From: a virus
Virus record (IMG/VR): IMGVR_UViG_3300044679_000086
Length of the DNA: 35,013 bases
Strand: one strand, 5' to 3'
The notes under the pieces are model-generated. The model made no database searches. It saw only the letters and a program-made list of their open reading frames with translations, and was not told where the DNA came from. How positions within the stretch are numbered: position 1 is the stretch's first letter; each line of letters opens with the position of its first letter. A program made the translations under genes and the position numbers. Shown here piece by piece: positions 3,836 through 24,033 of this stretch.

Positions 3836-4919
3836 AACTAAAACCCGCAGCTAGTGCATTGTTTAATTCTTTTTGCGGAATATAATAAAGCTCACCATTT
3901 CTATATAATCCAATACTTCCCGGTGGTGCCATATCATAGTTATTTTGATGTTTTGCTTGTTTTGCTGAAGTTTTTCTATTATTCGCTTTCATTACTTTCT
4001 GTTCAAGAGATTCAGGCTCATTTGCACTTACATTAATACCTTGCTCAAGGTTTTTCTTTTGTAATGCAATTTTTCTTTGAATTACAGGCCACGTCATTTT
4101 CAATCTATCTGCAATATTTTTTTCATTTTCTCCAGGATTAGCATTCAAAATATCTTCAATTTCTTGATTTGAATAACCAAGTGAACGTAATGCTGGGGCC
4201 ATTTGTGCTTTCAAAGCGCGGGCTTTTGCGGCTTCATTCGAAAGCTTATCCCCTCCTAAAAATTCTGAAACTTGCTGAGCGTAAGGTAATCCTGTTTTGC
4301 CTATACCACTTGCAAGCTTGGATAATTCCCTTCTTGCTCCACCAGCACCTCCTACTTTTGGAGCCAATTTAGAATATTCGTTAAATAATTTTTCAAGCCC
4401 TTTAGACTCAGTAAGAACATCTAGTCCTTTTTGCACATTAGTACCAGTTGGTGCATATATAGATTCTCCTTGCTCACCTCGATGAACTGTTCCGGGAGAA
4501 TAAGGGCTTTGCGTGAATTTACCAGTAAAATGTTCTGCGGGATTTTTAGGAGCCAATCCATTAATACCTTGCATACTACCCGGTTGCTGCGGCTGGCCCA
4601 TCTGACCGCCCTGAGGCATTTGGCCACTTTGACCGCTCATACCACCTTGTGAACCTAATCCTTGCCTTGAAAGCATCTGACTAATATAAGCTGCCATTTG
4701 TTGTTGTTGCTCAGGATGTAATGACGAAAAATAAGGACTACTTGCCAGCATAGCAAGTGGAGATATTTGTTTATGAAATATTTCTGCTTCTTTCTCGCGT
4801 GGCATATATTTTGCTTGTACTGCGCCTTTATAGCCTCCAAGCACACTCCCCAAAATATCAGGACTAAATCCAGCTCGTGAAGCCGTTAATTTAGATGCTG
4901 GGACATATGTGAATGACAT
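3828..4919 (-). CDS. Putative internal virion / ejection protein (position of P22 gp20)
   Basis: 363-aa ORF with a low-complexity Gln/Gly/Met tract (GMSGQSGQMPQGGQMGQPQQPGSMQG). The call rests on position only. Confidence 0.35.
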   Translation of the reverse strand: MSFTYVPASKLTASRAGFSPDILGSVLGGYKGAVQAKYMPREKEAEIFHKQISPLAMLASSPYFSSLHPEQQQQMAAYISQMLSRQGLGSQGGMSGQSGQMPQGGQMGQPQQPGSMQGINGLAPKNPAEHFTGKFTQSPYSPGTVHRGEQGESIYAPTGTNVQKGLDVLTESKGLEKLFNEYSKLAPKVGGAGGARRELSKLASGIGKTGLPYAQQVSEFLGGDKLSNEAAKARALKAQMAPALRSLGYSNQEIEDILNANPGENEKNIADRLKMTWPVIQRKIALQKKNLEQGINVSANEPESLEQKVMKANNRKTSAKQAKHQNNYDMAPPGSIGLYRNGELYYIPQKELNNALAAGFSYE

Positions 4920-4928
4920 AATTTATCC

Positions 4929-5534
4929 TTATGAAAATGCCTGAGCCCCAAGATAAGCACCAAATGGGCCGCCAACTGCAAATCCTGCTCCAGCACCCGC
5001 TAATTGACCGGCTTTATTAAACCATGAATTTGTATTTTCATTTTCCGCAGCCTGACCCTCATAAGCATTATTTGCTTGCGCGGCTAGAGCTTGTGCAATC
5101 ATATCTGCTTGGCTTTTTCCAGCATTTAATCCCATTCCAGCTAAGCCTTGTGAACCGGTTAATCCTTGACCATACAACCCTAATGCGTTTTGCATCCAAT
5201 TGTTATAGTCTTGACTTGCTATATCATTGGCCAATTGCATGTTTTGTTGCGAATGCTGAGGGCTTCCTGCCATTCCTCCGGCTGCTGCTGCATTCCCTGA
5301 TGCTTGTAATGCTTGTTGTATAGCAAATTTCATCCCTGGGGATTCTTTATAGGATTCTCCAAATTTATTCATCATGCCACCAGGGTCACCCATCAATCCT
5401 TTATATTGTCCTTCAAGGCCTGGGATGGCATTTTTACCAGCATTAATATATGGGTCGAAATAGGGGCTTGTAGCACCGGGAATTTGGCTATAGTAGGGAG
5501 ACGCAGCATCTGCGGGGTTCTTAAATCCAAACAT
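4929..5534 (-). CDS. Putative internal virion / ejection protein (position of P22 gp7)
   Basis: 201-aa Gly/Ala/Gln-rich ORF ending in a glycine-zipper-like hydrophobic segment (GAGAGFAVGGPFGAYLGAQAF). The call rests on position only. Confidence 0.35.
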   Translation of the reverse strand: MFGFKNPADAASPYYSQIPGATSPYFDPYINAGKNAIPGLEGQYKGLMGDPGGMMNKFGESYKESPGMKFAIQQALQASGNAAAAGGMAGSPQHSQQNMQLANDIASQDYNNWMQNALGLYGQGLTGSQGLAGMGLNAGKSQADMIAQALAAQANNAYEGQAAENENTNSWFNKAGQLAGAGAGFAVGGPFGAYLGAQAFS

Positions 5535-5581
5535 GATTCATCCTTAAATCATTTATTATTTACTATATCATATTCTTATGA

Positions 5582-5959
5582 TTACGTAATTGTAAACGTC
5601 CACCATCGAGCAGCAGTCACGTTTGGCGGTGTGCTTCCATCATAATTAATCACAAAAATTTGTGGCCCAGATATTGTTGTATTGTATATCATTTGACCGC
5701 TAATATCCGGTACTCCGGGGGGTAATGGAATGGGCGTTGGAGTGTAGTATTGAGCATACAATGCTGCAATATCTGCTGCCTGGGTACTTGTTAAAGGCGG
5801 AATTAAAATTCCTTCGTTTTTATAATTAGACTGTAACGCCTGAAATAGAGAAGAAAGCCCTAAGCTCCATAAATAATTAAAATTGCCATCTTTATCAACT
5901 GCTGGTGTTTCACGTGGCAAATCTGGAAAAATTGAATTTTGTATTTGTTGTTCTGCCAT
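5582..5959 (-). CDS. Hypothetical virion-module protein
   Basis: 125-aa ORF with an ATG start preceded by AGAGGATACCCAGAGG. It lies between the gp10-like gene and the ejection-protein-sized genes. Confidence 0.5.
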   Translation of the reverse strand: MAEQQIQNSIFPDLPRETPAVDKDGNFNYLWSLGLSSLFQALQSNYKNEGILIPPLTSTQAADIAALYAQYYTPTPIPLPPGVPDISGQMIYNTTISGPQIFVINYDGSTPPNVTAARWWTFTIT

Positions 5960-8359: not shown

Positions 8360-8569
8360 TCAAAACCATTTTAGAGATTTTGTTAGAGCTGTAATCAAAG
8401 TTGATACTAATGTTAAATATAAAGCAGAAGTTGTCCCCATTATCCAGTAAAACTGACTTCGCGCTGCATCACCCAATCCTTTCATTTCTAGACTAAAAGA
8501 ATCCTGTCTTTGCTTGAGTAATTCTATGTCTAATTCTTGTTGTGTGTACAATTTCACTTCTTTATTCAT
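8360..8569 (-). CDS. Small tail-anchored membrane protein, paralogue C
   Basis: Track ORF 8360..8590. The ATG at 8569 is preferred because GGAG lies 6 nt upstream. Sequence: MNKEVKLYTQQELDIELLKQRQDSF...FYWIMGTTSALYLTLVSTLITALTKSLKWF. The start overlaps the HNH stop by 8 nt. Confidence 0.6.
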   Translation of the reverse strand: MNKEVKLYTQQELDIELLKQRQDSFSLEMKGLGDAARSQFYWIMGTTSALYLTLVSTLITALTKSLKWF

Positions 8570-9197
8570 GGATGGCTCCGGTTGAATCATCCTTGATGTG
8601 TTCGTGTTGCTTTAGGTATTGTATCGCTTTTAACAGTATATTTATATCATCCTTAAATTTCCCCAAGCCAGTATTGCAACCATGGCATAATAACCCTCTT
8701 ATCTTCCCGGTATTATGGCAATGGTCAATTGCTAAAGCACAAATTTTACCATCTGTTCTAGACTTTCTTGTCTCTTCCTCATTGCAAATAGCGCATTTGT
8801 TTTCTTGTTGTTTTAACATCTCATAGTATAACTCTGGGGTTGTATGAAGTCTTCTACAGACTTCCCTAGTATTACGAAATTGGCCGGTCCTTTTTCTGTA
8901 ATCACTTGTCCATTTCAAATGCTTTTCAGGGTTATTTTTTCTATCTTCTCTAGCAAGAATATTTGACCTGGGCTCTATATCGCTTAAGCCTTCTCTGTAT
9001 AAAGCTCTATCTTCATTTCTCTTTCTATTAGCAGAAGCTCGATGTTTATCAGGATTATTGAGTTTATAAATTCTATCCTTGTCTCTTCTGCATTCAAGGC
9101 ATCTATATTGAAAGCCTAATTTCATTTGGTTATTTTTTTCTTTTCTTACCTGGCCCTCTGTTAAATCGCCATGAATTTTGCATTTCTTTACTATCAT
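8562..9197 (-). CDS. HNH endonuclease of the recombination endonuclease VII type (possible free-standing homing endonuclease)
   Basis: The 211-aa ORF has the C-terminal motif CAICNEEE...LAIDHCHNTGKIRGLLCHGCNTGLGKF, typical of the Endonuclease_7/HNH family. Its SD sits in a 7-bp hairpin (CTCCTGA..TCAGGAG, 9204..9226). Confidence 0.85.
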   Translation of the reverse strand: MIVKKCKIHGDLTEGQVRKEKNNQMKLGFQYRCLECRRDKDRIYKLNNPDKHRASANRKRNEDRALYREGLSDIEPRSNILAREDRKNNPEKHLKWTSDYRKRTGQFRNTREVCRRLHTTPELYYEMLKQQENKCAICNEEETRKSRTDGKICALAIDHCHNTGKIRGLLCHGCNTGLGKFKDDINILLKAIQYLKQHEHIKDDSTGAIHE

Positions 9198-11032: not shown

Positions 11033-12349
11033 TTAGCCTTGTGATAATGGAATGACGTAACGCATTGAGTATTCAGGCACGATGACCGAACCATGAGTTT
11101 CGTCATAAATCATTCCAGTTTGGTTTTGTCCGAACAAAGAACCATAAGTTAAGCGAAGAGATACACCAGTATCATCATCGTATTCATTCGCTGTATCATA
11201 AGGGCTTTGTTCTGGTAATTGAGGCATAGCCAAATAGAATGCATCTCCACCCAAAATACCGCCGCAACGATGACTAGGTAAGCCTAGAATCTGCATGCCT
11301 GCTTGGATTGGTTGGTTTAAGTTTTGGTTTTGCCCACCTGCCCAGTTCAATGCTGGAGTAATATTGATGGTTACTACACCAGAGGCATTTGCAGCGGCAT
11401 TTGCAGTTGCACGGAACTGAACTGCGTTAGCAGATGTAAAGTGCCCAATGAACGTCAAATAACGCATGTTAGTGAAGCCGGATACGCCATCTTGGAAGCT
11501 AAACAAATCGCCCGAGAATACGGCATTCAAATCACTTGCTGTAGCACCAGAGACAGTAATTTGCGTTACATTTTGGCCTGTAGGGTCATTCACAGAAACA
11601 ACAGTTAATGTATTTTGGTTCACGCCAGTATTACCTGAAACATGGATGGGCATTAAGTTAGATTGGTAATAATTTACACGAGGTGTACCAAAATCGCCCA
11701 CTTCCCAGCTCATTGCAATCTCATCGTTACGATGTGGAACGAACTGATTTAGACCATTTCCTACAATACTTGGTACAACTGTATCAGGAAGATACACTTT
11801 AATTCCTTCCGCAACAGAGCCATAATTCTTGAAGAACATGATTGCTTGAGCTAACTGTTGGTATGAAGTAAGCGCTTGAGTTCCATTACCATAAAAGCGG
11901 TATGGACCCGAGAATGTATTGAGCGTATTGGTTAATTGTGAATTAACTGCGGAAGCCCAGTTCAATGCAACGTTGCCTTCGACTTGAGTAGCAAGCTCAG
12001 CAATAGCTGATTTACCAAAGACTCTCATGTAGTCTTCTTCGCCTTTTTCCAAGTTAAATATACGTTGTTGTGAAGTAACAGCAAACGACGTATTGTTCGC
12101 TTGGTCGCACGCAAGAGTTTGGACTCTTTGTACTGCTGGCTGGAATGAAGCAACTAAACTCGCAGTAGTAGTGAACCTTGGGGGTAAATCAAATGTTACA
12201 GTAGAGCCTAAGTTCGCCTGTATGTTGTCAAAGTCTTTAAATTTGGTATTTGCCGTTGCGATGTGACAGCAAAGGTTTTGTAACAGCGCAAGACCAGAGC
12301 GTTGGTAGGTTTGCACCTGTTGCAATAAGTTTGTAGGGAAAACTGCCAT
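11033..12349 (-). CDS. Major capsid protein (P22 coat-like)
   Basis: 438-aa ORF directly after the scaffold-like gene. Its size is close to P22 gp5. The segment GDLFSFQDGVSGFTNMRYLTFIGHF..VVTINITPAL resembles P22 coat GDKISFAGVKFLGQMAKN...THVEITPKP. Confidence 0.75.
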   Translation of the reverse strand: MAVFPTNLLQQVQTYQRSGLALLQNLCCHIATANTKFKDFDNIQANLGSTVTFDLPPRFTTTASLVASFQPAVQRVQTLACDQANNTSFAVTSQQRIFNLEKGEEDYMRVFGKSAIAELATQVEGNVALNWASAVNSQLTNTLNTFSGPYRFYGNGTQALTSYQQLAQAIMFFKNYGSVAEGIKVYLPDTVVPSIVGNGLNQFVPHRNDEIAMSWEVGDFGTPRVNYYQSNLMPIHVSGNTGVNQNTLTVVSVNDPTGQNVTQITVSGATASDLNAVFSGDLFSFQDGVSGFTNMRYLTFIGHFTSANAVQFRATANAAANASGVVTINITPALNWAGGQNQNLNQPIQAGMQILGLPSHRCGGILGGDAFYLAMPQLPEQSPYDTANEYDDDTGVSLRLTYGSLFGQNQTGMIYDETHGSVIVPEYSMRYVIPLSQG

Positions 12350-12392: not shown

Positions 12393-13118
12393 TTACGCTC
12401 TATACTTGTTCTTCAAATCTTTCATAGACAGAGCGCCGCCGGAATCCGTTCCGGTGTTAGAAGGTCTCTGTTGCGACAACGGTGAATTGGATGATTTTAT
12501 CCTTGAGGTGTCTTCGTTTGCTTTGATGGAAGAAGACAAACGTTGAATCTCATAGATTGCATCTTGAGGGTTATGCTGGCATACAGACTCAATTTGATGT
12601 AATTTTGTTCTGTTGCGAGCTAAGTCATAAAAAACATCGGCGGCATTATCGACGTGCTCAGCTAAAAGTTGAACAACATTCGGGTAATAGCGCATATCAA
12701 CATTATTTGTAACTGCCTCAAAATCCTGATACTTATCTTTGCCCGCAGAAATCTTTTCTTGGTAAGAGTTCACAATTCGTTTCGCTGCTTCAGCCTGGTG
12801 ATGTTCAAGATTTTGTCTTTCCCAGTCTTCACGCTGACGATTCAGTTCTTCGGTGGTTAACCGTTTCACATCGTCTTCAGATAACGATTTTTGCGAATAA
12901 ACTGGCTCATAAGAGGAAGATTGTTGTCTTTTATACTCTTCCACTGCTCGTTGCGCTGCTTTTTCAGCGGCTTCACGTCGCGCATGACCAACCAACTCAT
13001 TTACTTTAGATTGCGGCAGCATTCGTTCCGCTTCCTGCGTTACTGATGCTACTGCTGCTTCTACGGGTGTCTGATTCATATCAGACGCGGTGTTATCCAT
13101 AACACTATTGTCCATCAT
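12393..13118 (-). CDS. Scaffolding protein
   Basis: 241-aa ORF, highly charged with helix-favouring composition (E/K/R/Q/A). It lies immediately upstream of the coat gene. Confidence 0.65.
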   Translation of the reverse strand: MMDNSVMDNTASDMNQTPVEAAVASVTQEAERMLPQSKVNELVGHARREAAEKAAQRAVEEYKRQQSSSYEPVYSQKSLSEDDVKRLTTEELNRQREDWERQNLEHHQAEAAKRIVNSYQEKISAGKDKYQDFEAVTNNVDMRYYPNVVQLLAEHVDNAADVFYDLARNRTKLHQIESVCQHNPQDAIYEIQRLSSSIKANEDTSRIKSSNSPLSQQRPSNTGTDSGGALSMKDLKNKYRA

Positions 13119-13320
13119 CGTTCCTTCTAGCTATTTCCCCGCCACGGTAACGCCTCTGCCTATCGAACAGGTCTCGAACTATTACGCCGTCACGCTAAAA
13201 TCTATCCCCGCATAACGCGCGGGTCTCGTTGTGGTCTGCAAATCCTTTTGCTGCCAATCCTTGGCCCCACAAGCTAAATTTATTAGATAAATGTATGTCA
13301 CTCGATAAAAAAGGAATGGA

Positions 13321-13410
13321 ATGGTAAACAATGTATGGATATGTAAAGATATGTAAAAGACAGTAAACAAAAAGATAGGTACAGTAAAAATCGTAACAAA
13401 ATGTAAAAGT
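13321..13410 (+). repeat. Array of about 10-bp phased ATGTAAA / AGTAAA repeats upstream of the plus-strand cassette
   Basis: GTAA(A) cores begin at 13324, 13343, 13353, 13363, 13384, 13393 and 13403, with spacings of 9-10 bp or double that. The tandem unit ATATGTAAAGATATGTAAAAGA (13339..13360) recurs as CTATGTAAGATATGTAAGGAGA (13608..13629) in front of the second gene. Confidence 0.8.
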
Positions 13411-13426
13411 ATTGCAGGAGAAATGG

Positions 13427-13615
13427 ATGATATTAGATGGTCAAAGATATTTTACGGATAAAGAAGTTGCCAGAAAATACGAGGTTTCCGTTAGATGGGT
13501 TAGGCAAATAAGGTATAAATCCAAAGATTTTCCATATTATAAATTAAATGGCCGTGTTTTCTACAAACAGGATGAAGTTGAAAAATGGTTTAAACATAAT
13601 TTAGTGCCTATGTAA
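13427..13615 (+). CDS. Excisionase/MerR-type helix-turn-helix DNA-binding protein
   Basis: The track ORF begins at a TTG (13412). The ATG at 13427 has AGGAG 6 nt upstream. The sequence MILDGQRYFTDKEVARKYEVSVRWVRQIRYKSKDFPYYKLNGRVFYKQDEVEKWF fits the HTH_17/Xis-like pattern (T..E.A....VS...V......G..P..K.G....F....V..W). Confidence 0.7.
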   Translation: MILDGQRYFTDKEVARKYEVSVRWVRQIRYKSKDFPYYKLNGRVFYKQDEVEKWFKHNLVPM

Positions 13616-13633
13616 GATATGTAAGGAGACAAG

Positions 13634-14149
13634 ATGAAAAATTGTTCTTTTGAAGGATGTGAAAGAGAACATAATGCCAAAGGATACTGTAGAGCTCATT
13701 ACGCTATATGGAAGAAAGGAAAGCCGCTTCATGTAATTAGATTTAAAAGTGGTATCAAAATATGTAGTTTTGAAGGGTGCGACAGACATAATTTAGCTAA
13801 GGGATGGTGTAGAGCTCATTACAAACAAATATATATGTACAAGAGTAAAGGCGCCCCTTTCCCTATTCGAAAAAGGAGTTGCAATAAAAAAGCAAAGGAA
13901 AAGTGCAGCGTAGACAATTGCGATAATTTTTTCAGAGCTAGAGGATGGTGCGAAAAGCACTACGGACGTTACAGAAAACATAGCGACCCTCTTACCTGCT
14001 ACATAAGGGCACGAAAGTCCGAATATGTTTCATTAGATAATATACTGAAGAATAGAGGGAATTATTCTAAGTCAGATGATGCCGAAGTTCTTAGAGAAAA
14101 TTTTAGTGATTTATATGACCAATTTGACCAAGACACAAGTTATTTTTAA
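13634..14149 (+). CDS. Protein with three tandem CCCH zinc-finger-like repeats and an acidic tail; no nuclease domain seen
   Basis: 171 aa with three repeats: CSFEGCEREHNAKGYCRAHY, CSFEGCDRHNLAKGWCRAHY and CSVDNCDNFFRARGWCEKHY (C-x4-C-x6/7-G-[YW]-C-x2-H-Y). I recall this repeat type from the N-termini of some phage HNH proteins, but no HNH motif follows here. The RBS AAGGAG is at 13623. Confidence 0.6.
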   Translation: MKNCSFEGCEREHNAKGYCRAHYAIWKKGKPLHVIRFKSGIKICSFEGCDRHNLAKGWCRAHYKQIYMYKSKGAPFPIRKRSCNKKAKEKCSVDNCDNFFRARGWCEKHYGRYRKHSDPLTCYIRARKSEYVSLDNILKNRGNYSKSDDAEVLRENFSDLYDQFDQDTSYF

Positions 14150-14156
14150 AAAAGGT

Positions 14157-14200
14157 CTCAGGCTTAACAAAAAGGAAGATAAAGAAAAATTAAGCCTGAG
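14157..14200. terminator. Inverted repeat between convergent genes (possible bidirectional terminator)
   Basis: CTCAGGCTTAA (14157..14167) and TTAAGCCTGAG (14190..14200) form an 11-bp perfect stem. The 22-nt A-rich loop is long for an intrinsic terminator. Confidence 0.35.
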
Positions 14201-14215
14201 AAAGATGTCACTCCA

Positions 14216-15127
14216 TTATAACACACTGTATCCGATAAAAATGGTGCCGTTCAGTGCAGTTGCAGCGGTATTATTGTAAATTGTTAAAGTAGCTGATCCA
14301 GAACCTGGAACGCACTCAAATGTAATATTTTGTGTCGTATTAGTTCCGCCTTGTATTGAAAGATGAATTACAGAAGTCGCAGAAATTTTTGTATTAGTCC
14401 AAGTAATCGCATAGCTCGCGCCACCTGCAGTCGTCAACGAAGAGGTCGTAATCACACCTGCATTACCGCTGGCTGTTACGGCATTTGCAGCTTCTGTACC
14501 ATTTACTTTGGCAAGGATTATCTGACTTCCTGCGGCCATTGTAGTCGTGCCAGTATTCAATACGAAGTTTGCAGTTGCAGCACCGGGATCAGGAATGCTG
14601 ACTACAGTAGCCTGACCCATTGCCGCATTGCTTATAGTTGTTAATGTATTCCCCGTGTTCGCAACTGCTGCCAACACTAAAGAACCCCTCGCGGCAGTTC
14701 CTGGGAACGAGGCAACTGTTCCTGCTGTTCCCGATAATCCTGCAGAAATATTCCCGGGCTGTATTACGTTACCCGCGGCAGAGGAAATCGTACCAGTAGT
14801 ATTTACAAAGTGAGCCAAGTAATTAGCGGTAGTTGGCAATACGGCGTCGCCCGGGTTACCCCATGTTGTTAATGTAACTTGTCCAGAGGATGGGGCAATA
14901 TTAACTGTAAATATACCAAATGTACCAGATTGAGTTTGTTGATTAAAACTATATAAAGCCATAACTACATCAGCGTTAGACAATGGGAAACCAGAGGCTA
15001 TATTGCTGTTATTCAGATATCCAGCAGTGGTTACGGCGCTTAACCCGTCGCTAAATACTGCGAATTTAAATTGAGGGAAGTTACCATTCGTTACAGGAAT
15101 AGGAACTGGTGATTGAAGAATACCCAT
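14216..15127 (-). CDS. Fibre-like virion protein sharing a 69-aa module with the 668-aa fibre
   Basis: 303-aa ORF rich in Thr, Ala, Gly and Asn. Residues 125-193 align without gaps to residues 265-333 of ORF 32310..34316, including the motif SNAxxGQATxxSxPDPGAxTA....NTG. Confidence 0.6.
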   Translation of the reverse strand: MGILQSPVPIPVTNGNFPQFKFAVFSDGLSAVTTAGYLNNSNIASGFPLSNADVVMALYSFNQQTQSGTFGIFTVNIAPSSGQVTLTTWGNPGDAVLPTTANYLAHFVNTTGTISSAAGNVIQPGNISAGLSGTAGTVASFPGTAARGSLVLAAVANTGNTLTTISNAAMGQATVVSIPDPGAATANFVLNTGTTTMAAGSQIILAKVNGTEAANAVTASGNAGVITTSSLTTAGGASYAITWTNTKISATSVIHLSIQGGTNTTQNITFECVPGSGSATLTIYNNTAATALNGTIFIGYSVL

Positions 15128-16444: not shown

Positions 16445-16783
16445 TTACTTTTTTTTTGCCCCTTTATGATGGTGATGCATCATTTTTTCATGATGTTTTA
16501 ATTCTTTCATGTGATGTTTATGCATTTCTTTATGATGGTGATGCATGTCTTTGTGGGCTTCATGCTTAGGATGCTCTTTTTTGGCATGTTCTTTTTTATG
16601 ATGTTCTTTCTTTGGTTCATGTTTCATTTGACGCTCCTTGTGTGGTTTTTGGATTCTTGCGCCAGATTCACGGGCTTCGTTTAGGCTGGCTGCAATTGCT
16701 TGCTTTCTTGGATGACCAGCGGCGACCATCTCAGAAATATTCTCGGAAATTACTTTTCTACTTCTACCTTTAGTTAATGGCAT
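16445..16783 (-). CDS. Small protein with a conserved-looking N-terminal domain and a His/Lys-rich tail
   Basis: Start moved to the ATG at 16783 because GGAGAGG lies upstream. Sequence: [44 protein letters not shown].. followed by [51 protein letters not shown]. The DNA repeat CTTTATGATGGTGATGCAT occurs twice in the tail region. Confidence 0.6.
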
Positions 16784-16955
16784 TTTCCTCTCCATCAATA
16801 AGACATTCGAGCTCAAGAATAGCACCTCGTGTATTCTCAATTTCTTTTTTGATGATTTTTACTCGTTCTTTTAGTGAAGCTAAAGTTTCTTCACAGCTAC
16901 GCAGTGTAGTAAACAAAATATCTTTTCGTTCCTCTAAAGATTGCTTTGTAATCAT
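16770..16955 (-). CDS. Small coiled-coil-like hypothetical protein
   Basis: 61-aa ORF with a 4-nt ATGA overlap with the upstream gene. Confidence 0.45.
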
Positions 16956-17250: not shown

Positions 17251-19353
17251 TCAATGATGTTGTTGATATCCACGAGGACTCCTTACTCTATGATGGGTTT
17301 CAATTACTTCTTTTACATGCCTATGGCCCATATCCTTATGTTTCAAGGTCAAATCCACTTCTTTTGCGAATTTCTCGGTCATCGCTTTAACGAGTTGAAC
17401 GTTTGCAGATTGTTGGCCTAAATGAAGGTCGGCGGTTACTTTGCGTTCATCTTGCTTTAAACGAGCCATATCTATTTGAAATTGTTGCTGCGCTTTCTGC
17501 TGGTCATGCTGCAACCTAGCCATATCCACTTGTGCTTTCATAGCCGAAGGATTTTGTTGTGCCTGTTGCTGCTGGGCTTGTTGCGCTTGTTTCTTCTCTT
17601 GCTCGTATTGTTGTACCCATTCATTGATTAATGACTTAAGCTCTTCAATGCCCTTTCCTTCCATGTTATCCAAGATGAAGTTCAACCCCTTTTCGGCCAT
17701 GAATTGAGCCACCAGAGGGGACATACCCATAATCTCCTTGACCATCATAATTGTTCTTGATTTTTGAACTTGGAAGCTTGCGCCTGCTTTAAGCGACACA
17801 TTGAGTGCATTGGTGTCGAAATCCATAGGCATGCCATCAGGCGAGTTGATTCGAACAAAATGCCTCTTACCTTCTTCATCCAATATGGGAAGGGTTCTTG
17901 GTGTGGTGAAATATTTAGGCATCAAATCAACGTAAATTTGAGCCACACGCTGGAATCCTTGCAGACAACCAACAATATAAGGCATTGCCGTTGCATTGGA
18001 CTGACTTGCAGCTTCAACAATGGCAACTCCAGACAATTGATTGTTGTTAATACCAAGACTGGCATCGTAAGAACCCAGCACGTTCTGAATAAGCGAATCG
18101 GCACCAGTAAATGCTTGCGCAATCTCAGGAGGAGCGGGAACACGCTGCACTTCTCTTATAGGATTACTAATAGGAAGGTCAGGATTAGACTCATGGACAG
18201 AATTATAAACAAGTACCGATTCCTTCTGTACATCTCGGTAAGCATCAAGAAATTGTTCTTCTTTTGGCAAAGCTTCTTTTGCCACCATAAACTTATGTTG
18301 GACTGTATTTTCAATCTCATTTGCGAGAGAAATACCGGCATAGTTTTTAAGGCGTTGCGCGCCTTTTGCATGATAAACATAGGGTCTGGTTACCTGTCGG
18401 ATGTTACCGTTTATTGGGGTTTTAATAAGGAGCGAATGACCGTCGATAAAAACTAGAGGCAGATGACTATAATCTGTTTCTTCGTATTCAATAACTTGGC
18501 TTTCGATGACGCGATAGCGACAAATGGTGTCTATCATCGTTTTACGGGGCTTGCCAATAATCGAAGGCGGAACGGTTATGTCATCCCATTCGTCGACCAT
18601 TTTTCGGTATTTACGCATGGTCATAACGCCGGCGTTGCGAACTTGAACTATTGTTTCATCCTTGCGCTTCTTTTCATAATAATCACCTACAACAACAATT
18701 TTGCTGTTGTCATTTAAGTAAGACCAATTAAAGCCTGCAAAGTCTCTTCTGAAGTTCAGAGTATTAATAGAAACATCAGGGTATTCATCCTGGAATTCTT
18801 CTGAATCTTTAGGGAATAATTCAAAGCAAAAATTGCCATCTCCTTTGTGAGAATAACGCGCAATTTTGTCAAAGCCACAAAGTGTTGGTTCGCAACGCGT
18901 GAATCGAATGGATTGATTCATGGACATAGGATGTTCGTAGTCTGTGAAGACTTTCATAACGCTAAACCCACCCGATAACAAATCTTTGTAGACTTCGTAA
19001 CGGGTGTGTTCATTGTTAGCATCCATGAATACATGCTTTAGATGCTGTTCTACTACTTTAATTGTAATTGGGTCGGCTTGGTCTTCATCAAATGCATTGA
19101 CCTGAATATCAGGTTCTTGTTTTGAGAATTCACCCAAAAGCCTGCTAATGTAGGCTTCCAAGACGTTAAATTCAAGCTGAGGCCGATTCATCGACATCAA
19201 CAGGGTGATTTCGTCATTTGTTAATGATGACTCAAACACAAACTTCCGGAACTCATTGTAGCGGTCGTAATTGTGCTTAAAATAGTCATGCGCATTGCGT
19301 ACTCTTTTCTTGATGCGCGCAAGATTATCTTGATAGCGTTTCGCTACGTCCAT
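17251..19353 (-). CDS. Portal protein (P22 gp1-like, with a long C-terminal helical extension)
   Basis: 700-aa ORF directly after the large terminase gene. The Gln-rich helical C-terminus (QQYEQEKKQAQQAQQQQAQQ...MARLQHDQQKAQQQFQIDMARLKQDERK) is consistent with the C-terminal barrel of P22-type portals. Confidence 0.8.
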   Translation of the reverse strand: MDVAKRYQDNLARIKKRVRNAHDYFKHNYDRYNEFRKFVFESSLTNDEITLLMSMNRPQLEFNVLEAYISRLLGEFSKQEPDIQVNAFDEDQADPITIKVVEQHLKHVFMDANNEHTRYEVYKDLLSGGFSVMKVFTDYEHPMSMNQSIRFTRCEPTLCGFDKIARYSHKGDGNFCFELFPKDSEEFQDEYPDVSINTLNFRRDFAGFNWSYLNDNSKIVVVGDYYEKKRKDETIVQVRNAGVMTMRKYRKMVDEWDDITVPPSIIGKPRKTMIDTICRYRVIESQVIEYEETDYSHLPLVFIDGHSLLIKTPINGNIRQVTRPYVYHAKGAQRLKNYAGISLANEIENTVQHKFMVAKEALPKEEQFLDAYRDVQKESVLVYNSVHESNPDLPISNPIREVQRVPAPPEIAQAFTGADSLIQNVLGSYDASLGINNNQLSGVAIVEAASQSNATAMPYIVGCLQGFQRVAQIYVDLMPKYFTTPRTLPILDEEGKRHFVRINSPDGMPMDFDTNALNVSLKAGASFQVQKSRTIMMVKEIMGMSPLVAQFMAEKGLNFILDNMEGKGIEELKSLINEWVQQYEQEKKQAQQAQQQQAQQNPSAMKAQVDMARLQHDQQKAQQQFQIDMARLKQDERKVTADLHLGQQSANVQLVKAMTEKFAKEVDLTLKHKDMGHRHVKEVIETHHRVRSPRGYQQHH

Positions 19354-19412: not shown

Positions 19413-20957
19413 CTATTTTGTATAAGCATTTTTCCTAAGCCGATTTAAATTCGTAGTGTTCATCGTTAAGTTTTTAGCTATGTCATTGTAATCGGTGCCA
19501 TTAATATGAGCTGATATTAGCAGTTTATCGATTAATGCAATTCTTATAGCGTCCGCGCATGTATCTGCAATGTCATCCCAACGATGCGTCTCATTTGCGG
19601 TAATCTTGCTCATATGCTCCAAGCACAGCTTAACATGGCGCCCAAATGCAGGAAAGGAAAGACGCCTTTCTGCTATATAAGGCTGTACTTCCAAGAACCT
19701 TTTTGTTTTATTTCCTTGCTCTCTAGTCCTAGGAATGTCCATAAGCTTCACTGTGCGTATTTCATCTAAAAGACTAAGCAACGTACCTCCAGTGGATTTC
19801 TTTTCAATAGCAATCATTTGTGGAGGTCGTTTATACCGCATGCATTGCTGCCAGAAATCTAGGAAAGTAGGTTTCAAGTCTTTTGGCTCGATACGCGTCT
19901 CCAACGTATCTATCCAATGGACTCCATATTGACCAGTCTTAATGCCAAATGATTCTATTTCATAAACACCCCAGAAGCTGAACACCGTTGCGTCATTATA
20001 ACTTTTTGCGGTTTCTGCAGTATCTGCGGTTATGAAACTATAAAGGATATATGGCTCATCTTCCAGCATCACAAACCATTCAGGTTTGAATAATGCGCCA
20101 CCTGATGGGATTGGGTCTTGCTGGTACTGACTGGCAAAGACATAGGGGTCTGTCTCTTGTTTTTTTAATAGCATCTCTTTGGGATTTACTTCAGGGTACA
20201 TAGCATTTCCTGCTTCATCTAAACTTTTTAGGATAACTTTATGCCAGTCATACCCATCTTTCCCGGAAATTAAGTAAGCTGCTAAGTCATCTTCATGGAG
20301 TCTTTGGCCGAGAAATATCGTAGGTACGTTGACTCCGCGGGCACGCTGCTGGATGGTTTCTCTGTAATTGTCGATAACAGATGTTCGAATTGTGTCAGAA
20401 TGTACCTCATCTGGTTTATGTGCGTCATCGATAATGACTGCACCTGTAAATCGGTTAAGCCCAGGCAGCCCTGCGTCCTGTCCAGTAATTGCGCCTCCTG
20501 AGCCAAAAGCTGCGACAGCTCCGCCTGCTGTTGTTTGGAAATACTCCCTTGCTTTTGAATCATGTCTAATCCTTACATCAAATAAAAAATTATAAGTTGA
20601 TAATTGCATAATCCGCTTTATTGTTTCTGTGTGTTTTGCTGCTAATACTTTGGAGTATGATATATAAAGAAATCGCGCATCAGGATATTTCGCCATCGTC
20701 CATGCAACCCACATGGCTAGCAATGTTGATTTCCCTGAACCGGGGCTTACGTTAATTAGAAGTTTGTGATTGGGTATTTCTAGACGAGCTGCCTCGGTAA
20801 GTGCTTCACTAATGATGAGATGATGTGACTGCCTTCCTTCAGGTTGTGAGACGATAAATGAACGTCCCGTAAGCAAAGGATAAAAGTATTTTGTAAACTC
20901 AATAAGGCTTCCTTTGAGTTTTGCCTTTAGACGGAAATGTTCATTTTCTGAGTTCAT
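19413..20957 (-). CDS. terL: Terminase large subunit
   Basis: 514-aa ORF with a Walker A-like motif (NVSPGSGKSTLLAMW) and a Walker B-like motif (GAVIIDDAHKPDE). A C-terminal nuclease-type region includes FITADTAETAKSYNDATVFSFWG. It lies immediately upstream of the portal gene. Confidence 0.9.
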   Translation of the reverse strand: MNSENEHFRLKAKLKGSLIEFTKYFYPLLTGRSFIVSQPEGRQSHHLIISEALTEAARLEIPNHKLLINVSPGSGKSTLLAMWVAWTMAKYPDARFLYISYSKVLAAKHTETIKRIMQLSTYNFLFDVRIRHDSKAREYFQTTAGGAVAAFGSGGAITGQDAGLPGLNRFTGAVIIDDAHKPDEVHSDTIRTSVIDNYRETIQQRARGVNVPTIFLGQRLHEDDLAAYLISGKDGYDWHKVILKSLDEAGNAMYPEVNPKEMLLKKQETDPYVFASQYQQDPIPSGGALFKPEWFVMLEDEPYILYSFITADTAETAKSYNDATVFSFWGVYEIESFGIKTGQYGVHWIDTLETRIEPKDLKPTFLDFWQQCMRYKRPPQMIAIEKKSTGGTLLSLLDEIRTVKLMDIPRTREQGNKTKRFLEVQPYIAERRLSFPAFGRHVKLCLEHMSKITANETHRWDDIADTCADAIRIALIDKLLISAHINGTDYNDIAKNLTMNTTNLNRLRKNAYTK

Positions 20958-21825: not shown

Positions 21826-21900
21826 TGGCTCCCCGTGATAGATTCGAACTACCGACCAACAAATTAACAGTTTGCCGCACTACCGCTGTGCTAACGGGGA
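21826..21900 (-). tRNA. tRNA-Asn (anticodon GUU) with an encoded CCA
   Basis: Minus strand: TCCCCGT-TA-GCAC-AGCGGTA-GTGC-G-GCAAA-CTGTTAA-TTTGT-TGGTC-GGTAG-TTCGAAT-CTATC-ACGGGGA-G-CCA. It folds into a full cloverleaf with a 7-bp acceptor stem, GG in the D-loop, a TTCGAAT T-loop and anticodon loop CU-GUU-AA. Confidence 0.9.
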
Positions 21901-22345: not shown

Positions 22346-22543
22346 TTATTCTACATTATAAATTATCTGTATAAAATGCTTGCATGACTCGAGAGCGCTT
22401 TCCTGACTAACCCCTTCATTTTTCATCAAAGAAATGTAGGCAGCACCACAATAATGTAATGCACATCGAATATCGTCTTCGCCTCGTGTTCTAAAGAATT
22501 CAATGACCTCGTCTTTTATCCTTTCTTCATTATCAATCATCAA
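22346..22543 (-). CDS. Hypothetical protein
   Basis: 65-aa ORF with a 4-nt overlap with the small terminase gene. Confidence 0.45.
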   Translation of the reverse strand: MMIDNEERIKDEVIEFFRTRGEDDIRCALHYCGAAYISLMKNEGVSQESALESCKHFIQIIYNVE

Positions 22544-23019
22544 TAATCCTTTTTATACTCTTCTTCCAATTTCTTTTCATGCTCTAATGCTTTCTGGCTT
22601 TCTAAGGATTGAGTATCATTAACTTCAACTTTTTCCCCATAAATTCGAGGAGCTAAACGAGCGGCTTCCCATTTTAAATTATTAGCTCGTGCAATTCTCA
22701 TGCTAGCTGAAGGAGGGTCAATTCTTTTTTGTCCATTAGCATCTTCAATGTAAAGTAATGGGCAATCTAGTAAGTCATCAATCTGCTGGACCTTGATAAT
22801 TGCTTGCAAAGCCTTCGCTTCTAAATACTTCTTACGAAAATCTGGGTATTTTGCATGCCATTCATATATTGTTTTAGCAGCCGGAAAATCATCGTAAAGC
22901 TTCACAATAGTATCAAGACCAACAGGATTGGATGCTACTTTTTCACAAATAAGATCACCTAGTTTAGGAGTGTATTTCGTTGGTCTTCCTCTTTCTGGGT
23001 TGGTCACAATACACCTCAA
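22540..23019 (-). CDS. terS: Terminase small subunit (putative)
   Basis: 159 aa with a TTG or GTG start. The N-terminal HTH-type pattern (ERGRPTKYTPKLGDLICEKVASNPVGLDTIVKLYDDFPAAKTIYEWHAKYPDFRKKYLEAKA) and the C-terminal RIARANNLKWEAARLAPRIYGEK match a pattern I recall from small terminase / DNA-packaging proteins. Confidence 0.6.
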   Translation of the reverse strand: MRCIVTNPERGRPTKYTPKLGDLICEKVASNPVGLDTIVKLYDDFPAAKTIYEWHAKYPDFRKKYLEAKALQAIIKVQQIDDLLDCPLLYIEDANGQKRIDPPSASMRIARANNLKWEAARLAPRIYGEKVEVNDTQSLESQKALEHEKKLEEEYKKDY

Positions 23020-23462: not shown

Positions 23463-23672
23463 ATGATGAATTTTGCCGATTTAACTGATTACCACTTTGC
23501 ATTCCATTGTGAAGTAGCGAATGATAAATGCGACCATTGGGAATATGATTTCTCAATAGAACGGTGGGACGACAAATATTGTCGCAACCTCAGCCAATTC
23601 GAAATAGAGCAACTTAAAGCAAATTGCAAAGGGATTTTAAGCGCAATTAGTGCAATTCAAGGAGGATGTTAA
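23463..23672 (+). CDS. Hypothetical early protein
   Basis: 69-aa ORF directly behind the promoter and leader box. Confidence 0.5.
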   Translation: MMNFADLTDYHFAFHCEVANDKCDHWEYDFSIERWDDKYCRNLSQFEIEQLKANCKGILSAISAIQGGC

Positions 23673-23673
23673 T

Positions 23674-23823
23674 ATGGCTTACTACGGAATGATGGATGGA
23701 TGGCATGGTGATGAATATGAGTGCCTGAATCAATGCGGTATGTGTAAAGATTGTGATGAGCATTACTATCACAAATGTGACACTGATTACGAAGAATGGC
23801 GCGATGATGAGCTAGCAGCTTAG
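23674..23823 (+). CDS. Small Cys-rich acidic protein (not in the ORF track)
   Basis: Hand translation: MAYYGMMDGWHGDEYECLNQCGMCKDCDEHYYHKCDTDYEEWRDDELAA (49 aa). The RBS GGAGG is 8 nt upstream and there is a 1-nt gap to the previous stop. Confidence 0.45.
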   Translation: MAYYGMMDGWHGDEYECLNQCGMCKDCDEHYYHKCDTDYEEWRDDELAA

Positions 23824-23832
23824 GGGAATAAT

Positions 23833-24033
23833 ATGGACGACGTGAATAAACTAATACCCATGCTATGGAATATGTCCCAAGGCAGGAAAAGAAGGCGCTT
23901 TACTGCAAATATACACTCCAAAGAGGAGGAAATCATTGTGAACATTTTAAGCGGTAATCGGTGGCGATGCTTTAAAAATAAAAATGCAGCTGCCTTAATA
24001 AGTGAAATTAAACAATCGTTAATTCTTGCGTAG
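23833..24033 (+). CDS. Hypothetical early protein
   Basis: 66-aa basic ORF. Its 3' end overlaps the convergent ORF 24008..24253 by 26 nt. Confidence 0.4.
   Translation: MDDVNKLIPMLWNMSQGRKRRRFTANIHSKEEEIIVNILSGNRWRCFKNKNAAALISEIKQSLILA

Follow-up and report, generated by a model that had tools for sequence, protein, structure and literature searches.

What are two small genes doing on the opposite strand in the middle of the head-assembly genes of a phage? The question is raised by a stretch of 35,013 nucleotides from the IMG/VR virus record IMGVR_UViG_3300044679_000086 (hereafter the window), a 35 kb phage genome with head genes of the P22-like type. Between the portal and small-gene block on one side and the scaffold and coat genes on the other, all of them on the minus strand, two genes are read from the plus strand. 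The first (13427..13615) encodes a 62-residue winged-helix protein of the HTH_17, BldC/Xis-like kind (hereafter the HTH protein, for helix-turn-helix), and the second (13634..14149) a 171-residue protein with three CCCH zinc fingers. The pair is preceded by an array of short phased repeats and closed by an inverted repeat. The initial annotation took these parts for a self-contained two-gene cassette, possibly a regulatory module. Most of the features that it described, including both genes and the gene order around them, were found where it had placed them. Comparison with relatives shows, however, that the cassette is a composite, in which the HTH gene, the array and the closing hairpin form a conserved core and the zinc-finger gene is an accessory gene. 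A regulatory role is reasonable for the HTH gene with its phased repeats, but the zinc-finger gene is not part of this core. We give a probability of about 50% to the following explanation: the HTH protein binds the array head-to-tail, regulates the operon in which it is encoded and also modulates the scaffold-coat promoter on the divergent side, and the zinc-finger gene is co-transcribed cargo.

The open reading frame (ORF) listed for the HTH gene is 13412-13615. The likely start codon is the ATG at 13427, 5 nt past an AGGAG at 13417-13421, and the gene call of the Joint Genome Institute also gives 62 residues. The protein matched the Pfam family HTH_17 (PF12728) with 32.5 bits (cut-off 27, E = 1e-7), a family to which its homologues had been assigned in earlier annotation, and its best PHROG was phrog_66, 'excisionase and transcriptional regulator' (2.8e-8). 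An AlphaFold2 model built with nine homologues had a predicted local distance difference test score (pLDDT) of 84 and the layout of a winged helix, with strands at residues 6-9, 38-40 and 43-47 and helices at residues 11-17, 22-31 and 48-58. It is a single bare domain, in which no coiled coil, effector or oligomerisation domain was found. The initial annotation had proposed structure searches with both proteins. For the HTH model, the best Foldseek matches were the BldC-DNA complexes (6ama, 6amk), the excisionase RdfS, small-terminase DNA-binding domains (7lw0, lambda gpNu1), Pukovnik Xis and Tn916 Xis, with template modelling scores of 0.6-0.76 and a probability of 1.0; RacA was another neighbour. 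Sequence searches of the PDB with the HTH profile and with the zinc-finger profile gave nothing meaningful. Among close homologues, 30 positions of the HTH protein are invariant, and homologues are recognisable down to 30% identity. By the profile match and the model, the HTH protein belongs to the BldC/Xis-type winged-helix fold class.

Upstream of the HTH gene, at 13324..13407 on the plus strand, eight direct repeats with a GTA core follow one another with a period of 10.0 bp. GTAAA starts at 13324, 13343, 13353, 13363, 13384 and 13403, GTAAC at 13393 and GTATG at 13333; one slot of the array (~13373) is degenerate. The cores are all on one strand and are direct, not palindromic. The phase vector was R = 0.96 at a period of 10.0 and at most 0.66 at 9.5 and 10.5. 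GTAAA occurs six times in the 90 nt of the array, compared with a maximum of two per 90 nt elsewhere on either strand. When the local AT-rich segment was shuffled 2000 times with its dinucleotides kept, the density of the array was never reached. A run of three in-register GTAAA is found once in the window against 0.01 expected, and no two-unit array patterns were found elsewhere in the genome, where the array is unique. The phased repeats noticed in the initial annotation are therefore real and non-random. They lie from -103 to -20 relative to the HTH start codon and provide candidate sites for this protein: a single winged-helix domain that matches the HTH_17 profile is encoded next to direct repeats spaced by one helical turn.

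Relatives were gathered through the scaffold, HTH, zinc-finger and coat proteins, and six to nine marker proteins were mapped at each relative locus (L numbers below). Nucleotide and coat-protein searches of 50,697 cultured or deposited phage records returned no close relative, and the HTH protein matched only four unannotated faecal phage contigs among the deposited records, leaving no annotated relative that could be used. In more than 20 syntenic relatives, the HTH gene lies antisense between a homologue of the 303-residue protein p303 (14216-15127, minus strand) and the gene of the scaffolding protein (12393-13118, minus strand). It occupies this slot in L006-8, which are near-identical copies of the window, and in L009-L015, L017, L020-L024, L074-L078, L080, L081 and L085. 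The identity to the HTH protein of the window ranges from 30 to 76% in the carriers from L009 to L085, and a more diverged copy is present in L018.

The array recurs with the gene. In L076-78, the HTH proteins of which are 71-76% identical to that of the window, GT[A/T]AA repeats stand at 10 bp. GGTAA is repeated at 10 bp in L011 and L012 (HTH ~68%), with 5 and 6-7 copies and a 20-nt difference between them, and GTA is found at spacings that are multiples of 10 bp in L074 and L075 (HTH 66%). Even at ~30% HTH identity, AAAATA / TAGTAAA repeats are spaced at 10 bp (L020, L022). In L009, L014, L016 and L017 (HTH ~42-44%; the contig of L016 stops before the HTH gene), repeats of the GTATGAA type at 10 or 20 bp stand upstream of an extra gene that precedes the HTH gene; the array of L016 is GTATGAATTAATATTAAT, in three copies at 20 bp. 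Outside the lineage of the window and L079, what recurs is the HTH gene with its array but without the zinc-finger gene, and not the gene pair whose co-occurrence with the repeats the initial annotation had proposed to check.

That annotation could match the locus to no described system. The HTH fold together with the one-turn repeats, however, corresponds to the mode of binding of BldC, Xis, Apl, Cox and D29 gp36. On direct repeats, the number of which varies, BldC assembles head-to-tail into multimers, with distortion of the DNA (PMC5859096). Both Streptomyces BldC, a small MerR-like regulator and the best structural match, and the HTH protein are single winged-helix domains of ~60 residues that carry no dimerisation or effector domain, and the variable number of AT-rich direct repeats bound by BldC fits an AT-rich array that has eight units phased at 10 bp in the window and varies in copy number among relatives. 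The HTH protein differs in being phage-encoded, with an identity of ~21-24% to BldC, and the GTAAA core to which it would bind is unrelated to the BldC consensus AATT-N4-C. Apl, Cox and Xis likewise use direct repeats spaced by one helical turn, to which they bind highly cooperatively while bending the DNA, and Apl and Cox also regulate promoters (PMC7498355). The MerR-like repressor gp36 of the lytic phage D29 binds direct repeats too (PMC12266134), an example of a purely repressing role for such a protein in a lytic phage. These small winged-helix proteins, namely 186 Apl, P2 Cox, Xis and D29 gp36, resemble the HTH protein; their operators are one-turn direct repeats between or over divergent or face-to-face promoters, to which the proteins bind cooperatively and which they bend. 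The window, in contrast, has no attachment site, and no integrase was found among its ORFs of at least 90 residues. The HTH gene also differs from the genes of Apl, Cox and D29 gp36 in its position, antisense inside a head-assembly block and not in an early or immunity region, and its likely target is the scaffold-coat operon.

The other end of the unit is marked by a hairpin at 14156..14201 (minus strand), with a stem of 12-13 bp and a loop of 20-22 nt that is A-rich, or T-rich on the minus strand. Its arms, 14156-14167 and 14190-14201, are a perfect 12-bp inverted repeat, the one already noticed as closing the cassette. On the minus strand, a 13-bp stem is followed by CCUUUUUU; the folding energy is -18.6 kcal/mol (z = -3.1). 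In L009, L011, L012 and L017, the same hairpin stands directly 3' of the HTH stop codon as TCAGGCTTAA, a loop of ~20 nt and then TTAAGCCTGA. The hairpins of L014, L015, L077 and L078 have other stem sequences in which the pairing is retained. The antisense unit is divergent from the scaffold-coat operon and convergent with the unit that runs from portal to p303. The hairpin is likely to terminate the portal..p303 unit and to mark where the antisense unit ends. Since the portal..p303 transcript probably ends there, a separate scaffold-coat promoter would be needed within 13260-13420.

On these grounds we propose the following mechanism. The HTH protein would multimerise cooperatively and head-to-tail on the eight repeats, one helical turn apart, and would bend or coat ~80 bp of DNA immediately upstream of its own gene. 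The array would overlap or abut the HTH promoter region. Immediately downstream in the other direction comes the interval that has to contain the scaffold-coat promoter; the repeats are ~60-140 bp upstream of the 5' edge of the scaffold leader RNA that is described below. We infer that, from this classic position, a bound protein could regulate its own promoter on one side, and could activate from upstream or repress by spreading on the other. Bound to the array, the HTH protein would thus control its own antisense operon and determine how strongly, or when, scaffold and coat are transcribed, with a sign that the model does not fix. The conserved hairpin would end both the antisense and the portal..p303 transcripts, and the zinc-finger gene, as a later insertion between the HTH stop codon and this terminator, would be co-transcribed with the HTH gene.

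Several facts weigh against this explanation. The Foldseek E-values of the HTH model are modest, ~1e-2, as expected for a domain of 62 residues. The array is weak or reduced to two copies in L013, L015 and L024. Its repeats are also phased A-tracts, and the DNA could be bent without a protein. A scan for sigma-70 promoters on both sides of the array gave nothing convincing or well placed and fewer hits than in shuffled sequences. Because no sigma-70 promoter was called and the bins that hold relatives point to no single host, we can only infer the promoter positions and the sign of the regulation. Scaffold expression is not strictly dependent on the HTH protein, since L019 and possibly L082 have no HTH gene and keep the leader RNA. 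As for the zinc-finger protein, AlphaFold2 gave a poor model (pLDDT 57) for which Foldseek returned no meaningful hit, and the function that we suggest for it below is a guess.

It is worth noting that the array could be interpreted in another way. The phased GTAAA repeats and A-tracts might form an upstream element with intrinsic curvature, which would boost either or both of the divergent promoters without a dedicated protein, while the HTH protein acts elsewhere, for example on host DNA. This would agree with the A3-A5 tracts of the repeats, which are in phase with the helix, and with the comparison of distant relatives, among which the sequence of the array is poorly conserved and its AT-richness and phasing persist. 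It would also agree with the fact that the genome holds no second copy of the motif to indicate a regulon. The part that is most conserved across relatives, however, is the GTA core, which is not an A-tract. The array always accompanies the antisense HTH unit and shifts with it, to a position upstream of the extra gene where one precedes the HTH gene, and the fold class of the protein is known to read direct repeats of one turn. We consider a purely curved element unlikely, although it keeps some weight.

The hairpin and the cargo of the slot raise a further possibility. The unit could be mainly a transcriptional insulator, in which the antisense operon and the hairpin block transcription that continues past the portal..p303 unit, or run into it, and uncouple low-copy structural genes from high-copy ones; which proteins are encoded would then be secondary. 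The convergent orientation and the conserved hairpin, followed by a run of U on the minus strand, are consistent with such a function, and so is the exactly conserved position between the portal-side genes and scaffold-coat. The cargo of the slot varies as well: L013 has a gene of 76 residues after the HTH gene, and in L009 (~5180-5700), L014, L016 (1-430) and L017 an extra gene of ~160-190 residues, on the reverse strand of each locus, precedes the antisense HTH gene. Pfam and PHROGs gave nothing informative on the ~170-residue product of L009 and L014 or on the 76-residue product of L013. From these comparisons the HTH slot appears to be a hot spot for cargo genes. On the other hand, the sequence of the HTH protein is itself well conserved, with its 30 invariant positions among close homologues; the hairpin alone would suffice for insulation; and L019, without an HTH gene in this interval, keeps the leader and the gene order. 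Insulation as the main function is therefore doubtful, and we retain the explanation in which the HTH protein acts on the array.

The zinc-finger gene is one such cargo. It starts 18 nt past the HTH stop codon, with only a ribosome-binding site in between, and it uses the pre-existing hairpin. Among the relatives, it is found in the HTH slot only in the lineage of the window (L006-8) and in L079, and it is missing from the slot in more than 20 syntenic relatives. At other loci it occurs in L001 and L003-5. In L003, the coat protein of which is 85% identical to that of the window, the gene is at another locus, and full-length relatives of it sit near the end of the early or replication operons in L001, L004 and L005. 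Since the hairpin directly follows the HTH gene in L009, L011, L012 and L017, the zinc-finger gene was inserted between the HTH stop codon and a hairpin that was already there. Accessory genes of this kind in the late operons of lambdoid and P22-like phages are known as morons, from the work of Hendrix and colleagues. As in a moron slot, the added DNA separates elements that are neighbours in relatives, differs from the flanks in base composition and is bounded by a likely terminator, and the cargo differs from relative to relative. In contrast to a moron, the zinc-finger gene, for which no promoter of its own was called, probably rides on the conserved HTH unit, and the HTH gene is itself core.

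The boundary between the two genes bears on another claim. A repeat unit had been reported to recur before the second gene, which is borne out only in part: at 13608..13629 (plus strand) there is a 12-mer with one mismatch and a spacing of 9 bp (TATGTAAGA / TATGTAAGG). It covers the stop codon of the HTH gene and AAGGAG, the ribosome-binding site from which the zinc-finger gene would be translated. The junction in L079, the closest relative that has the same gene pair, is ATGTAAGGAGGCAGGATG and lacks the 9-bp duplication; in L011, which has no zinc-finger gene, the HTH gene is followed by ATGTAAAGATAT. Because the duplication is missing from the junction of L079, the repeat is a local duplication specific to this lineage, and a function as a second operator is unlikely. 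We also considered the 9-bp direct repeat ATGTCACTC, which flanks the low-GC segment at 13295-13303 and 14205-14213, as an insertion scar. This was rejected, since the left copy lies in sequence that is kept by relatives without the zinc-finger gene, since the insertion is in fact bounded by the HTH stop codon and the hairpin, and since chance alone should produce a 9-mer match within 1 kb.

The encoded protein consists of three C-x4-C-x7-G-[YW]-C-x2-H-Y units at residues 4-22 (13643-13699), 44-62 (13763-13819) and 91-109 (13904-13960), with zinc ligands C4/C9/C19/H22, C44/C49/C59/H62 and C91/C96/C106/H109, and of a conserved, partly acidic C-terminal tail at residues 117-171 (13982-14146). 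The fingers are as the initial annotation described them; in agreement with it, Pfam, PHROGs and NCBIfam showed no nuclease domain, and the matches spanned the fingers only. The PHROG families named 'HNH endonuclease' matched the finger part only (phrog_5351, 1.8e-23), and the tblastn matches of the protein lay toward the N-termini encoded by actinophage HNH and EndoVII genes. Of 1.84 billion representative proteins searched with a profile, 17,189 had the finger module. The Pfam domains in the 116 top finger relatives were HNH (19), HNH_3 (14), HNH_5 (14), Endonuclease_7 (11), GIY-YIG (4) and LAGLIDADG_3 (3), and the Zf_WRKY19 model matched 51 of the 116. The finger is thus a promiscuous DNA-binding module of homing endonucleases and a common one, which again bears on the failure to match the locus to anything described.

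In detail, the signature C-x4-C-x7-G-[YWLF]-C-x2-H-[YW] followed by ..R..(H)GDP is shared with the fingers of homing endonucleases (PHROGs 5351, 1271 and 19978; the Zf_WRKY19 type; zinc-ribbon HNH nickases, PMC3592412), and so are the tandem arrangement, the phage context and the patchy, mobile-like distribution. The 171-residue protein differs from them in that it has no HNH, EndoVII, GIY-YIG or LAGLIDADG domain and has instead a conserved tail, and in being under purifying selection. It belongs, with ~15 clusters, to a small nuclease-free subfamily that has 3-6 fingers and a common tail (..HGDPLTCYRRPRKSEYVSLDNILKN.G.YSK.DD.EVLRENF..); the tail of the subfamily is ~55 residues long (RPRKSEYVSLDNILKN.G.YSK.DD.EVLRENF...). 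Nine members of the family share 51 invariant columns, and the ORF of the window is intact. Against L079, dN/dS, the ratio of nonsynonymous to synonymous divergence, was 0.25 over 171 codons, with a dS of 0.40. Because of this purifying selection, we read the gene as functional and not decayed.

Could the zinc-finger gene, or the whole pair, nevertheless be a selfish element of the homing-endonuclease type, with no regulatory role and with its nuclease lost or borrowed in trans, for example from the EndoVII-type gene at 8562-9197? The initial annotation had named homology to a decayed homing endonuclease and absence from syntenic relatives without a phenotype as arguments against its own view; the homology to homing-endonuclease modules and the absence from syntenic relatives were both found, but the decay was not. 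Of the features expected of a homing endonuclease, the homologous DNA-binding module and the sporadic presence are there, and the catalytic domain is not. Fingers of this kind are found in HNH, EndoVII, GIY-YIG and LAGLIDADG homing endonucleases, the distribution of the gene is patchy, with varying loci in related phages, and the G+C content is 31-36% over most of 13300-14200, below the 40-50% of the flanks. Zinc-ribbon proteins that stand alone next to HNH nickases are known (PMC3592412), and EndoVII or HNH genes co-occur with the zinc-finger gene in the window, L003, L004 and L005. However, the nuclease-free form is a conserved subfamily with an invariant tail of its own, the dN/dS is low, and the HTH gene is a stable core gene and not mobile. 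The EndoVII gene of the window has no such fingers and is 5 kb off, not adjacent. Relatives that lack the zinc-finger gene carry it equally, and a two-part nuclease is therefore not favoured. A selfish element without a regulatory role seems improbable to us.

Binding of the zinc-finger protein to the array was rejected as the main idea for two reasons. The arrays occur without the zinc-finger gene, and zinc-finger phages without the HTH gene show no comparable array of phased GTA: L001, L003, L004 and L027 have 4-5 phased GTA, which is the background level, and L005 has one phased run of 6 that was not looked into. DNA-binding parts of homing endonucleases have been reused as regulators (PMC3384342). 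The zinc-finger protein is most likely a sequence-specific DNA binder that would act elsewhere than on the array.

That the HTH protein is an excisionase, or recombination directionality factor, and that the repeats belong to an attachment site is suggested by its best PHROG, by its structural matches to RdfS, Pukovnik Xis and Tn916 Xis, and by the one-turn direct repeats to which recombination directionality factors bind. We rejected this reading because there is no integrase: none of the integrase family was found among the ORFs of at least 90 residues in the 35-kb contig. Furthermore, the relatives were found as free contigs of 35-39 kb, not within bacterial contigs, and the location in the morphogenetic block beside the scaffold leader is not that of an att-int-xis arrangement, all of which makes an excisionase highly improbable. 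A packaging-recognition or partition site with its binding protein, a role mentioned in the initial annotation, has in its favour the structural neighbours 7lw0, lambda gpNu1 and RacA and the fact that small-terminase-type proteins also read repeated sites, but it can be set aside as barely credible, because a separate small terminase homologue is present (22540-23019, minus strand; phrog_1482, 1.3e-23), and also in view of the 62-residue protein having no oligomerisation domain and no ParA/ParB-type partner.

The preferred explanation, regulation of the scaffold-coat promoter from the array, concerns a transcript that carries a second conserved element. The 5' leader RNA of the scaffold gene, at 13114..13259 on the minus strand, folds into four hairpins in two tandem units, after which come the Shine-Dalgarno sequence and the AUG at 13118. 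Each unit consists of CGAGAC and a hairpin, followed by a short hairpin with the 9-nt loop GG(G/C)G(A/U)AAUA. The leader of 146 nt is far more conserved than the neighbouring DNA, and it is non-coding, since a 1-nt indel in L013 breaks any reading frame. Compensatory changes were found at 10 of 18 pairs. Paired cells amounted to 97.6%, compared with 30-46% when the partners were slid, and none of 500 shuffles reached the observed scores. The structure was assigned to the minus-strand RNA because of its G-U pairs. A covariance model found a single copy in each phage, in every case immediately 5' of the scaffold gene, at 21 loci, nine of which had not been used to build it. There was no Rfam match in 12900-14400. 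The leader is a new, well-supported RNA motif with strong covariation. It could serve as a translational operator, or else in antitermination. In P22, the synthesis of the scaffolding protein is autoregulated after transcription.

The remaining genes of the window set the scene for this locus. On the minus strand lie the coat protein gene (11033-12349), the P22-type portal (17251-19353), the large terminase (19413-20957) and ~eight small genes between portal and p303, and the tail and ejection genes are also on this strand. The rest comprises RecE/RecT/SSB, replication genes, RusA and a lysozyme. The statement that the two antisense genes are the only plus-strand genes within about 27 kb holds for the structural block; it would fail if three tightly packed tandem plus-strand ORFs of 69, 57 and 66 residues at 23463-24033, between the small-terminase block and the replication genes, are real. 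Six bins of metagenome-assembled genomes with relatives come from unrelated taxa, the contigs in question have the size of phage genomes, and no host was inferred from them.

Some further observations concern individual genes. In the p303 homologues of L009-L015, tblastn gave two overlapping segments, covering query residues 1-190 and 98-303, which suggests an internal duplication or an inserted repeat domain, together with a variable C-terminus, in these relatives. The EndoVII-type gene (8562-9197, minus strand; phrog_2633, 1.4e-26) is located inside the structural operon, is without CCCH fingers and looks like a free-standing homing endonuclease; its homologues have varying positions and strands among the relatives, with two in L003. 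In L019, the most distant relative examined, an antisense HNH-type gene of 245 residues with Cys-rich fingers (4025-4762) lies in the portal-to-scaffold interval. A 131-residue protein encoded among the small genes past the portal (16445-16840, minus strand) has an extremely His/Lys-rich C-terminal half, and its N-terminus matches phrog_2423, a family without an assigned function. A tRNA-Asn (GTT) gene is present at 21826-21900 (minus strand), between the small-terminase block and the large terminase gene.

The array and the leader might also be parts of one device. In this bolder proposal, the most abundant virion proteins of an uncultured P22-like clade would be under a two-layer switch, an antisense-encoded BldC/Xis-type polymer on the array beside the scaffold-coat promoter and a four-hairpin leader gating scaffold translation or transcript elongation, and one lineage would have captured a domesticated, nuclease-free finger array of homing-endonuclease origin, with a new conserved tail, as a sequence-specific regulator or as a protector of homing sites. 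We regard the whole of it as unlikely, tentative as it is. What seems likely is that the HTH gene, the array and the hairpin form a regulatory module, which is of the BldC/Xis kind and in an unusual but conserved place. Its parts belong to known kinds, and current ideas are not overturned by it. The zinc-finger gene indicates that a very common finger module of homing endonucleases, present in more than 17,000 representative proteins, also exists in a nuclease-free form with a tail of its own, and the gene is a candidate for the domestication of a homing endonuclease. The leader RNA offers a handle on the control of scaffold synthesis in P22-like phages. If the proposed model of binding and regulation is true, the binding mode of BldC and Xis would be extended to late-gene control in a phage in which no integrase was found. 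It would then explain how a group of podoviruses separates the expression of low-copy head genes (terminase, portal) from that of high-copy ones (scaffold, coat), by means of a small filament-forming regulator placed backwards between the two.

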